64,000 nt of DNA from Escherichia coli (GTDB lineage: Bacteria; Pseudomonadota; Gammaproteobacteria; Enterobacterales; Enterobacteriaceae), in the NCBI RefSeq assembly GCF_013315695.1, contig NZ_CP054353.1; one strand, written 5' to 3'. Shown in pieces: positions 35,224-36,649 of this stretch; the stretch's first letter is position 1; every line of letters begins with the position of its first letter. Below the pieces are notes generated by a model that had not been told where the DNA came from, made no database searches, and saw only the letters and a program-made list of their open reading frames with translations. The position numbers and the translations under genes were made by a program.

Positions 35224-35325
35224 GCCGGACTCCTATATTTATAATTTTAATTGTTTACGTAATTGTGCATTACGCAAGGTTGACATTAACGGCAGGTTAA
35301 AGTTTTAGGACTTTACTACCGCTCA

Positions 35326-36520
35326 GGAAGGTGCGAACAAGTTCCTGATATGAGATCATCATATTCATCCGGAGCGCATCCCAGAGGGACATCATGAGCC
35401 ATCAACTCACCTTCGCCGATAGTGAATTCAGCACTAAGCGCCGTCAGACCCGAAAAGAGATTTTCCTCTCCCGCATGGAGCAGATTCTGCCATGGCAGAA
35501 TATGACCGCTGTCATCGAGCCGTTTTATCCCAAGGCGGGCAATGGCCGACGGCCCTATCCGCTGGAGACCATGCTGCGTATTCACTGCATGCAGCATTGG
35601 TACAACCTGAGCGACGGTGCCATGGAAGATGCCCTGTACGAAATCGCCTCCATGCGCCTGTTTGCCCGATTATCCCTGGATAGCGCCCTGCCGGATCGCA
35701 CCACCATCATGAATTTCCGCCACCTGCTCGAGCAGCATCAACTGGCCCGTCAATTGTTCAAGACCATCAATCGCTGGCTGGCCGAAGCAGGCGTCATGAT
35801 GACCCAAGGCACTTTGGTGGATGCCACCATCATTGAGGCACCCAGCTCTACCAAGAACAAAGAGCAGCAACGCGATCCGGAGATGCATCAGACCAAGAAA
35901 GGCAATCAGTGGCACTTTGGCATGAAGGCCCACATTGGTGTCGATGCCAAGAGTGGCCTGACCCACAGCCTAGTCACCACCGCGGCCAACGAGCATGACC
36001 TCAATCAGCTGGGTAATCTGCTTCATGGAGAGGAGCAATTTGTCTCAGCCGATGCCGGCTACCAAGGAGCGCCACAGCGCGAGGAGCTGGCCGAGGTGGA
36101 TGTGGACTGGCTGATCGCCGAGCGTCCCGGCAAGGTAAAAACCTTGAAGCAGCATCCGCGCAAGAACAAAACGGCCATCAACATCGAATACATGAAAGCC
36201 AGCATCCGTGCCAAGGTAGAGCACCCGTTTCGCATCATCAAGCGGCAGTTCGGCTTCGTGAAAGCCAGATACAAGGGGCTGCTGAAAAACGATAACCAAC
36301 TGGCGATGTTATTCACCCTGGCCAACCTGTTTCGGGTGGACCAAATGATACGTCAGTGGGAGAGATCTCACTAAAAACTGGGGATAACGCCTTAAATGGC
36401 GAAGAAACGGTCTAAATAGGCTGATTCAAGGCATTTACGGGAGAAAAAATCGGCTCAAACATGAAGAAATGAAATGACTGAGTCAGCCGAGAAGAATTTC
36501 CCCGCTTATTCGCACCTTCC
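35326..36520 (+). mobile_element. IS5, complete 1195 bp, without a matching 4-bp target duplication
   Basis: Terminal repeats ggaaggtgcgaacaag ... cttattcgcaccttcc; InsH transposase ORF; flanks ctca (left) and cttg (right) differ. Confidence 0.93.
35394..36374 (+). CDS. insH: IS5 transposase InsH
   Basis: 326-aa ORF recognised as IS5 InsH (DDE transposase). Confidence 0.93.
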
Positions 36521-36649
36521 CTTGTGAGTCCATTAAAACCCGATTTAAAACATTTTTATGCGTGTGTTTTCACAAAACAGATTTTCCGTTCCGCTGCCAT
36601 TTTTCATTTTCATTGATATCTAAGGCAACAAAAAATGGAGAGCCGAATC

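Follow-up and report, generated by a model that had tools for sequence, protein, structure and literature searches.

The window, by which we mean the whole stretch of 64,000 nucleotides of Escherichia coli DNA that was analysed, contains the genes of L-galactonate utilization between tsr and opgB. In E. coli K-12 (NC_000913), the order of the genes in this region is tsr (+), lgoT (-), lgoR (-), lgoD (+) and opgB (-). Hence, lgoR (yjjM), which codes for a GntR-type regulator, does lie between lgoT (yjjL) and lgoD (yjjN) in the reference, in line with the original prediction. In the window, the place of lgoR is held by an insertion sequence (IS) of the IS5 family, which was confirmed by both the K-12 gene order and the alignment. 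The features of the region are as follows.

32152..33813, plus strand: tsr, a context gene with a TTAA tetranucleotide inside it at 33142-33145
33862..35223, minus strand: lgoT (yjjL), L-galactonate:H+ symporter, GTG start, 453 aa, intact
35224..35325, no strand: remnant of the lgoT-lgoR spacer, 102 bp kept of 214 bp, ending in CTCA
35326..36520, plus strand: complete IS5-family element, ISKpn26-like, 1195 bp
35326..35341, plus strand: left terminal inverted repeat, GGAAGGTGCGAACAAG
35394..36374, plus strand: InsH-like transposase open reading frame, 326 aa, intact, reading toward lgoD
36344..36520, plus strand: 3'-terminal 177 bp of the IS, the 'IB' region (A-tract bend and IHF site in canonical IS5)
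36505..36520, plus strand: right terminal inverted repeat, CTTATTCGCACCTTCC
36521..36649, no strand: remnant of the divergent lgoR-lgoD intergenic region, 129 of 138 bp kept, beginning with CTTG
36650..37672, plus strand: lgoD (yjjN), L-galactonate oxidoreductase, 340 aa, intact
37809..40100, minus strand: opgB, a context gene collinear with K-12

The interval between the two start codons thus consists of 102 bp, the 1195-bp element and 129 bp, very close to the predicted complete IS with about 100 bp on each side. A comparison of translations with K-12 gave six substitutions in LgoT and three in LgoD, and neither reading frame contains a stop codon. The two intergenic remnants are similarly well conserved. 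The one next to lgoT differs from K-12 at a single position, and the one next to lgoD at two, with the start codon and the ribosome-binding site of lgoR missing from it. The G+C content of the two lgo intergenic regions is 36-38%, compared to 51% for the window.

The 102 bp kept upstream of lgoT contain a perfect inverted repeat, CGTAAT-N5-ATTACG (35256-35272), which is conserved in K-12. It is a candidate operator, and as such it could suggest that lgoT has a regulated promoter of its own. When the window junctions and the K-12 locus were scanned for consensus promoters and terminators, the counts were at or below the shuffle expectation and were uninformative on the promoters of lgoT and lgoD. 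An Rfam scan of window positions 32000-38500 returned no RNA families.

The IS belongs to the IS5 family by several measures. It is about 1.2 kb long and is bounded by 16-bp terminal inverted repeats of the form GGAAGGTGCGAA(C/T)AAG that match at 15 of 16 positions. Its DDE transposase scores 366.8 bits against the NCBIfam model of IS5 family transposases (NF033581; cut-off 140), full-length over 326 aa. The original prediction called the element IS5. It is indeed complete and of that family, but it is a variant that agrees with a canonical IS5 copy at 1132 of 1196 aligned positions (94.7%). The first ~500 bp hold most of the differences, the transposase differs by six amino acids, and the last 177 bp show no difference at all. 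Identical copies carry the RefSeq/PGAP annotation 'IS5-like element ISKpn26 family', and this label is the source of the ISKpn26 name used here. The window contains a single copy of this element. The one family trait that it lacks is the 4-bp target-site duplication with the consensus Py-T-A-Pu: the element is flanked by CTCA on the left and CTTG on the right, and a direct repeat is absent, exactly as predicted. Such an absence is expected after a deletion.

Alignment with the K-12 locus (L001) shows that both flanks are collinear with the reference all the way to the IS ends, with window position 35325 corresponding to L001 5825 and position 36521 to L001 6861/6862. The right boundary can be placed only to within 1 bp, as the final C of the IS is also the K-12 base at this position. 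The left junction reads ...TTTTCCTCCTTG/GGAAGGTGCG and the right one CACCTTCC/CTCACAAAAAC, where the slash marks the boundary. The 1035 bp of K-12 DNA that are missing (L001 5826-6860) comprise the whole of lgoR (5938-6852) together with 112 bp beyond its 3' end and the 8-9 bp that precede the gene, where its ribosome-binding site lies. In agreement with this, a tblastn search of the whole 64 kb with K-12 LgoR returned no LgoR match (best E = 2.2). Because the flanks are collinear up to the IS ends and 1035 bp of the reference are absent between them, the loss of lgoR, as judged from this alignment, is an IS-associated deletion, and a simple insertion is ruled out. The reference DNA is absent exactly from the IS end and there is no target-site duplication, which is what an IS-adjacent deletion looks like. 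The predicted deletion is thus well supported. The companion claim, that the IS sits in the promoter region of both remaining genes, needs a qualification. While lgoT retains 102 of 214 bp and is cut from the lgoR promoter, the lgoD side retains all but 8-9 of its 138 bp.

The allele is not peculiar to one strain. Identical junctions, aligned in a single piece at 99.8-100% identity, are found in 79 of 5,426 complete E. coli genomes (~1.5%), and the allele is stable and inherited. The genomes that carry it come from humans, pigs, dogs, frogs, pigeons, cattle, chicken and seawater, and they include ETEC serotypes O169:H41, O27:H7 and O25:NM as well as strain ATCC 43886. In strain J6, an ISVsa5 element is found within the IS5 copy. 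Both lgoT and lgoD are still annotated in the ~55 allele-bearing genomes among the matches listed.

In order to test for a displaced lgoR, the K-12 gene was appended to a query spanning the junctions, and the number of matching places per record was compared. The numbers did not change upon addition of lgoR: they remained at one in AF3, two in AR_0069 and five in 14EC001. Among the matches listed, none of the ~55 allele-bearing chromosomes, AF3 included, contains an lgoR copy of either allele type. The intact lgoR elsewhere in the genome that would have spoken against the original prediction is thus absent from these chromosomes. The procedure is sensitive to a divergent (~81%) lgoR allele, as it detects this allele in other genomes. 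Overall, lgoR is matched in 5,215 of the 5,426 genomes, 796 of which have only the divergent allele, and the whole collection contains three plasmid places that match lgoR. We considered whether the ~81% match in these 796 genomes, annotated as 'GntR family', could be a paralogue of lgoR, and rejected this idea, since the match occupies the lgoR locus itself, as a divergent allele, and is absent from the allele-bearing chromosomes. In Combat13F7 (L008), this divergent lgoR (3482-4387) adjoins lgoD, and on its other side there are nhaK (a Na+/H+ antiporter gene) and TRAP-transporter genes, with lgoT and tsr absent. The mutual exclusion of lgoT and nhaK/siaPT has already been published (PMC10769857).

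The genome closest to the window is that of AF3 (NZ_OZ547117.1), a UK bloodstream isolate, which is 99.98-100% identical over the compared window positions 1-33668, except for an additional IS1 copy that the window has at 25441-26208. This copy has a 9-bp duplication and is absent from AF3. Three further IS1 copies are found at ~11244-12012, ~12419-13187 and ~26855-27623, and they fall into two sequence types that are ~91% alike. The DUF2686 gene (yjiC) is broken in two, with its C-terminal half at ~11990-12418 (minus strand) and its N-terminal half at ~26432-26854 (plus strand). As these halves are separated and each of them abuts an IS1, this arrangement indicates an IS1-mediated inversion of a ~13.7-kb mdtM-iraD block relative to the K-12 order. 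In K-12, the hsd/mcr/mrr 'immigration control' region lies between mdtM and yjiA. The corresponding place in the window holds only an IS1 and, after it (~27624-28400), the toxin gene brnT, which is frameshifted, and the antitoxin gene brnA, both named here after the AF3 annotation.

The lgo locus has been hit by IS5-family elements in other strains as well. In ES10 (L005 2456-3650), the element is ISKpn26-like, with 1193 of 1195 bases identical to the window copy, whereas 18AR0366 (L006 2456-3650) contains canonical IS5. The two elements inserted independently into the same CTAA, which lies 24 bp past the stop codon of lgoR. Both have the orientation of the window copy and a CTAA duplication, and lgoR is intact in both strains. 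ES10 contains an additional IS1 between lgoR and lgoD. In THO-010 (L007 1541-2735), DLI.5a and AST46, an ISKpn26-like element in the window orientation interrupts the 5' coding end of lgoT, and lgoR is again intact. The lgo regulatory region is hence a recurrent IS5 target. The low G+C content of the lgo intergenic regions fits the contexts reported for IS5 hot spots, which are AT-rich and easily destabilised (PMC5493358).

With these data at hand, the possibility that the arrangement is an assembly artefact, or that a lineage ancestrally devoid of lgoR received a simple IS insertion, is effectively refuted. The same junctions are present in 79 independently assembled complete genomes. The missing stretch begins and ends at the IS ends, with flanks that match K-12 up to them, and 5,215 of the 5,426 genomes have lgoR in one allelic form or the other. 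Furthermore, a simple insertion would leave a target-site duplication, which the insertions in ES10 and 18AR0366 have and the window IS does not.

The origin of the deletion is illuminated by the sister strain MSB1_4I. It contains the same IS copy (L004 10870-12064) in flanks that are 100% identical, and its right junction is unchanged. Its left IS end, however, abuts tsr at TTAA (...GGCGTTAA/GGAAGG). A further 2180 bp, corresponding to window positions 33146-35325, have been deleted, and with them all of lgoT and the 3' third of tsr, so that the serine chemoreceptor is truncated. The same copy has thus extended a one-sided deletion to a canonical Py-T-A-Pu target. A one-sided deletion that ends at a fresh target is expected from intramolecular, replicative transposition of the IS5/IS903 type (PMC11708052). 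[quoted passage not shown]

Hence, the window allele most likely arose in two steps. An ISKpn26-like element would have entered the AT-rich regulatory DNA of the lgo locus, and the adjacent 1035 bp would then have been lost in a transposase-mediated deletion that started from one of the IS ends. We infer this order of events, insertion first and deletion second. We also looked for a precursor with lgoR intact and the IS either at the left junction, with a CTCA duplication, or at the right junction, with a CTTG duplication. Neither of these two hypothetical junctions was covered to 80% or more in any of the 5,426 genomes, and what the searches retrieved instead were independent insertions at a CTAA site.

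The usual explanations for IS copies that lack a target-site duplication are an adjacent deletion or recombination between IS copies (PMC11708052). In the latter case, two IS copies in the same orientation, one at CTCA and the other at CTTG, would have recombined by homology and removed lgoR between them. That IS5-family elements have struck this locus repeatedly and in one orientation is in favor of such a pathway, as is its standing as a recognised cause of missing duplications. It requires three events instead of two, however, and an IS at either junction together with lgoR is found in 0 of 5,426 genomes. The one-sided deletion that the same copy made in MSB1_4I, to a fresh TTAA target, bears the signature of an adjacent deletion, and we consider recombination between two copies very unlikely.

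A somewhat less remote alternative, although still an improbable one, is a one-step event that places the IS at the centre of a deletion, so that the intermediate never existed. The absence of the intermediate from 5,426 genomes would then be expected. Both junction tetranucleotides, CTCA and CTTG, deviate from the Py-T-A-Pu consensus at the third position, although sixteen consensus target sites are available in the region; according to ISfinder data, the Py-T-A-Pu requirement is not strict. A precedent for the one-step event has been proposed (PMC11708052), but the mechanism itself is only a hypothesis. A missing intermediate is weak evidence if the allele is old, and the deletion made by the same copy in MSB1_4I was an ordinary adjacent one. 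[quoted passage not shown] The kind of event, an IS that lacks a target-site duplication beside a deletion, is textbook and does not require a new mechanism. The pathway that it affects is well annotated, and the allele is already annotated in dozens of RefSeq genomes. Our search of the literature on lgoR, yjjM and lgoT found no description of a natural lgoR-deletion allele.

What the loss of lgoR means for the cell depends on the role of its product. PMC5010248, citing Reed et al. 2006, reports that a K-12 lgoR knockout loses growth on L-galactonate. Two other sources describe YjjM as the pathway regulator, with all three genes induced on L-galactonate (bioRxiv 10.64898/2026.05.20.726482), and lgoRT and lgoD as divergent operons (PMC5934670). 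The yjjM gene is also listed as a mutation target in a mouse-gut evolution study. In the window, 1.2 kb of IS now stand between lgoT and the divergent promoter region. Both lgoT and lgoD are intact, but they would be left without their dedicated regulator, with lgoT presumably cut off from the lgoR promoter. As lgoR is reportedly required for growth of K-12 on L-galactonate, the most likely consequence is that LgoR-dependent induction is lost and that the strains grow on L-galactonate poorly, if at all. Relaxed selection on the genes left behind would fit the later loss of lgoT in MSB1_4I. On the other hand, the intact reading frames of lgoT and lgoD could mean that these genes are still used, which counts against a loss of function.

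This leads to a different possibility, namely that the IS has rewired the pathway adaptively. The bent, IHF-binding IB region at the 3' end of the IS, or read-through from the transposase promoter, would drive lgoD expression independently of LgoR and may also relieve the silencing of lgoT. The geometry is suitable. The IS lies upstream of lgoD and turns its 3' end toward the gene, at a distance of 129 bp from the start codon, and its transposase reads toward lgoD. This is the orientation of the known cases, in which the ins5A promoter is distal (fucAO and flhDC) and the 177-bp 3' end is proximal (glpFK) (PMC2753651). To activate glpFK, these 177 bp suffice (PMC2753651), and in the window they are intact and identical to those of canonical IS5. 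At fucAO, a fusion promoter reads through IS5 independently of the activator FucR (PMC11894529). The spread of the allele with lgoT and lgoD intact, and the three other independent IS5-family insertions at the locus in the same orientation, also point in this direction. However, the shared orientation (four out of four) has a chance probability of 0.125 and is not significant. The IS end that faces lgoT is the non-activating end in the glpFK model, lgoT was lost in MSB1_4I with no apparent penalty, and the consensus promoter scan showed nothing above chance. Activation of lgoD by the IS is therefore less likely than loss of function, and we regard it as doubtful.

Taken to its full extent, this possibility would mean that an IS5-type element has taken over the function of a pathway-specific activator in a natural lineage of E. 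coli, giving LgoR-independent lgoD expression and possibly lgoT derepression. We consider this a long shot. If it were true, the pathway would be constitutive, or under the control of CRP and ExuR/UxuR only, and the repeated IS5-family hits in the same orientation would reflect selection on lgo expression in the gut.

In summary, an IS insertion, an adjacent deletion of lgoR and the resulting loss of LgoR-dependent induction are the best explanation of this locus, to which we assign a probability of roughly 85%. It accounts for the fact that a catabolic regulator, present in most E. coli, is missing from ~1.5% of the complete genomes, several ETEC lineages and a bloodstream isolate among them. 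The phenotype that it predicts is simple to test, as it concerns growth on L-galactonate (in Biolog PM1, L-galactonic acid gamma-lactone).

The window allele can be compared to several known systems. It resembles the K-12 lgoR (yjjM) knockout in that LgoR is wholly absent while lgoT and lgoD are intact. It differs from the knockout in that half of the lgoR-lgoT spacer is also missing and 1.2 kb of IS lie between the divergent promoter region and lgoT. The ES10, 18AR0366 and THO-010 group strains share the locus and the IS orientation with the window, and ES10 also shares the type of IS. Their insertions, however, are located downstream of lgoR (ES10 and 18AR0366) or inside lgoT (the THO-010 group), and all of them have kept lgoR.

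The likeness to the activation of glpFK, fucAO and flhDC (PMC2753651, PMC11894529, PMC5493358) consists in an IS5-type element upstream of a catabolic gene, with the transposase promoter distal and the 177-bp 3' end proximal. At fucAO, the activation bypasses the pathway's own activator, whereas in the window the activator gene has been deleted. Furthermore, the elements in the known cases inserted simply, at CTAA or CTAG, and duplicated their target sites, and their effects on expression were proven. In the window, an effect on expression would be a predicted one, and the element is ISKpn26-like, 94.7% identical to IS5 overall and identical in the 3' 177 bp.

The closest counterparts are the IS-adjacent deletions described for the IS903/IS5 family and for IS150 in the LTEE (PMC11708052). 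There, as in the window, a single IS lacks a target-site duplication between collinear flanks, and the loss starts exactly at the IS end. The window allele differs from them in that the insertion prior to the deletion was found in none of the 5,426 genomes and in that both of its junction tetranucleotides are non-consensus. It is also a natural polymorphism of 79 complete genomes rather than a laboratory event. Such deletions can be extended later, as happened in MSB1_4I, and together the two alleles provide a natural example of a stepwise IS-adjacent deletion by one copy, which would have removed lgoR first, and lgoT and part of tsr next.
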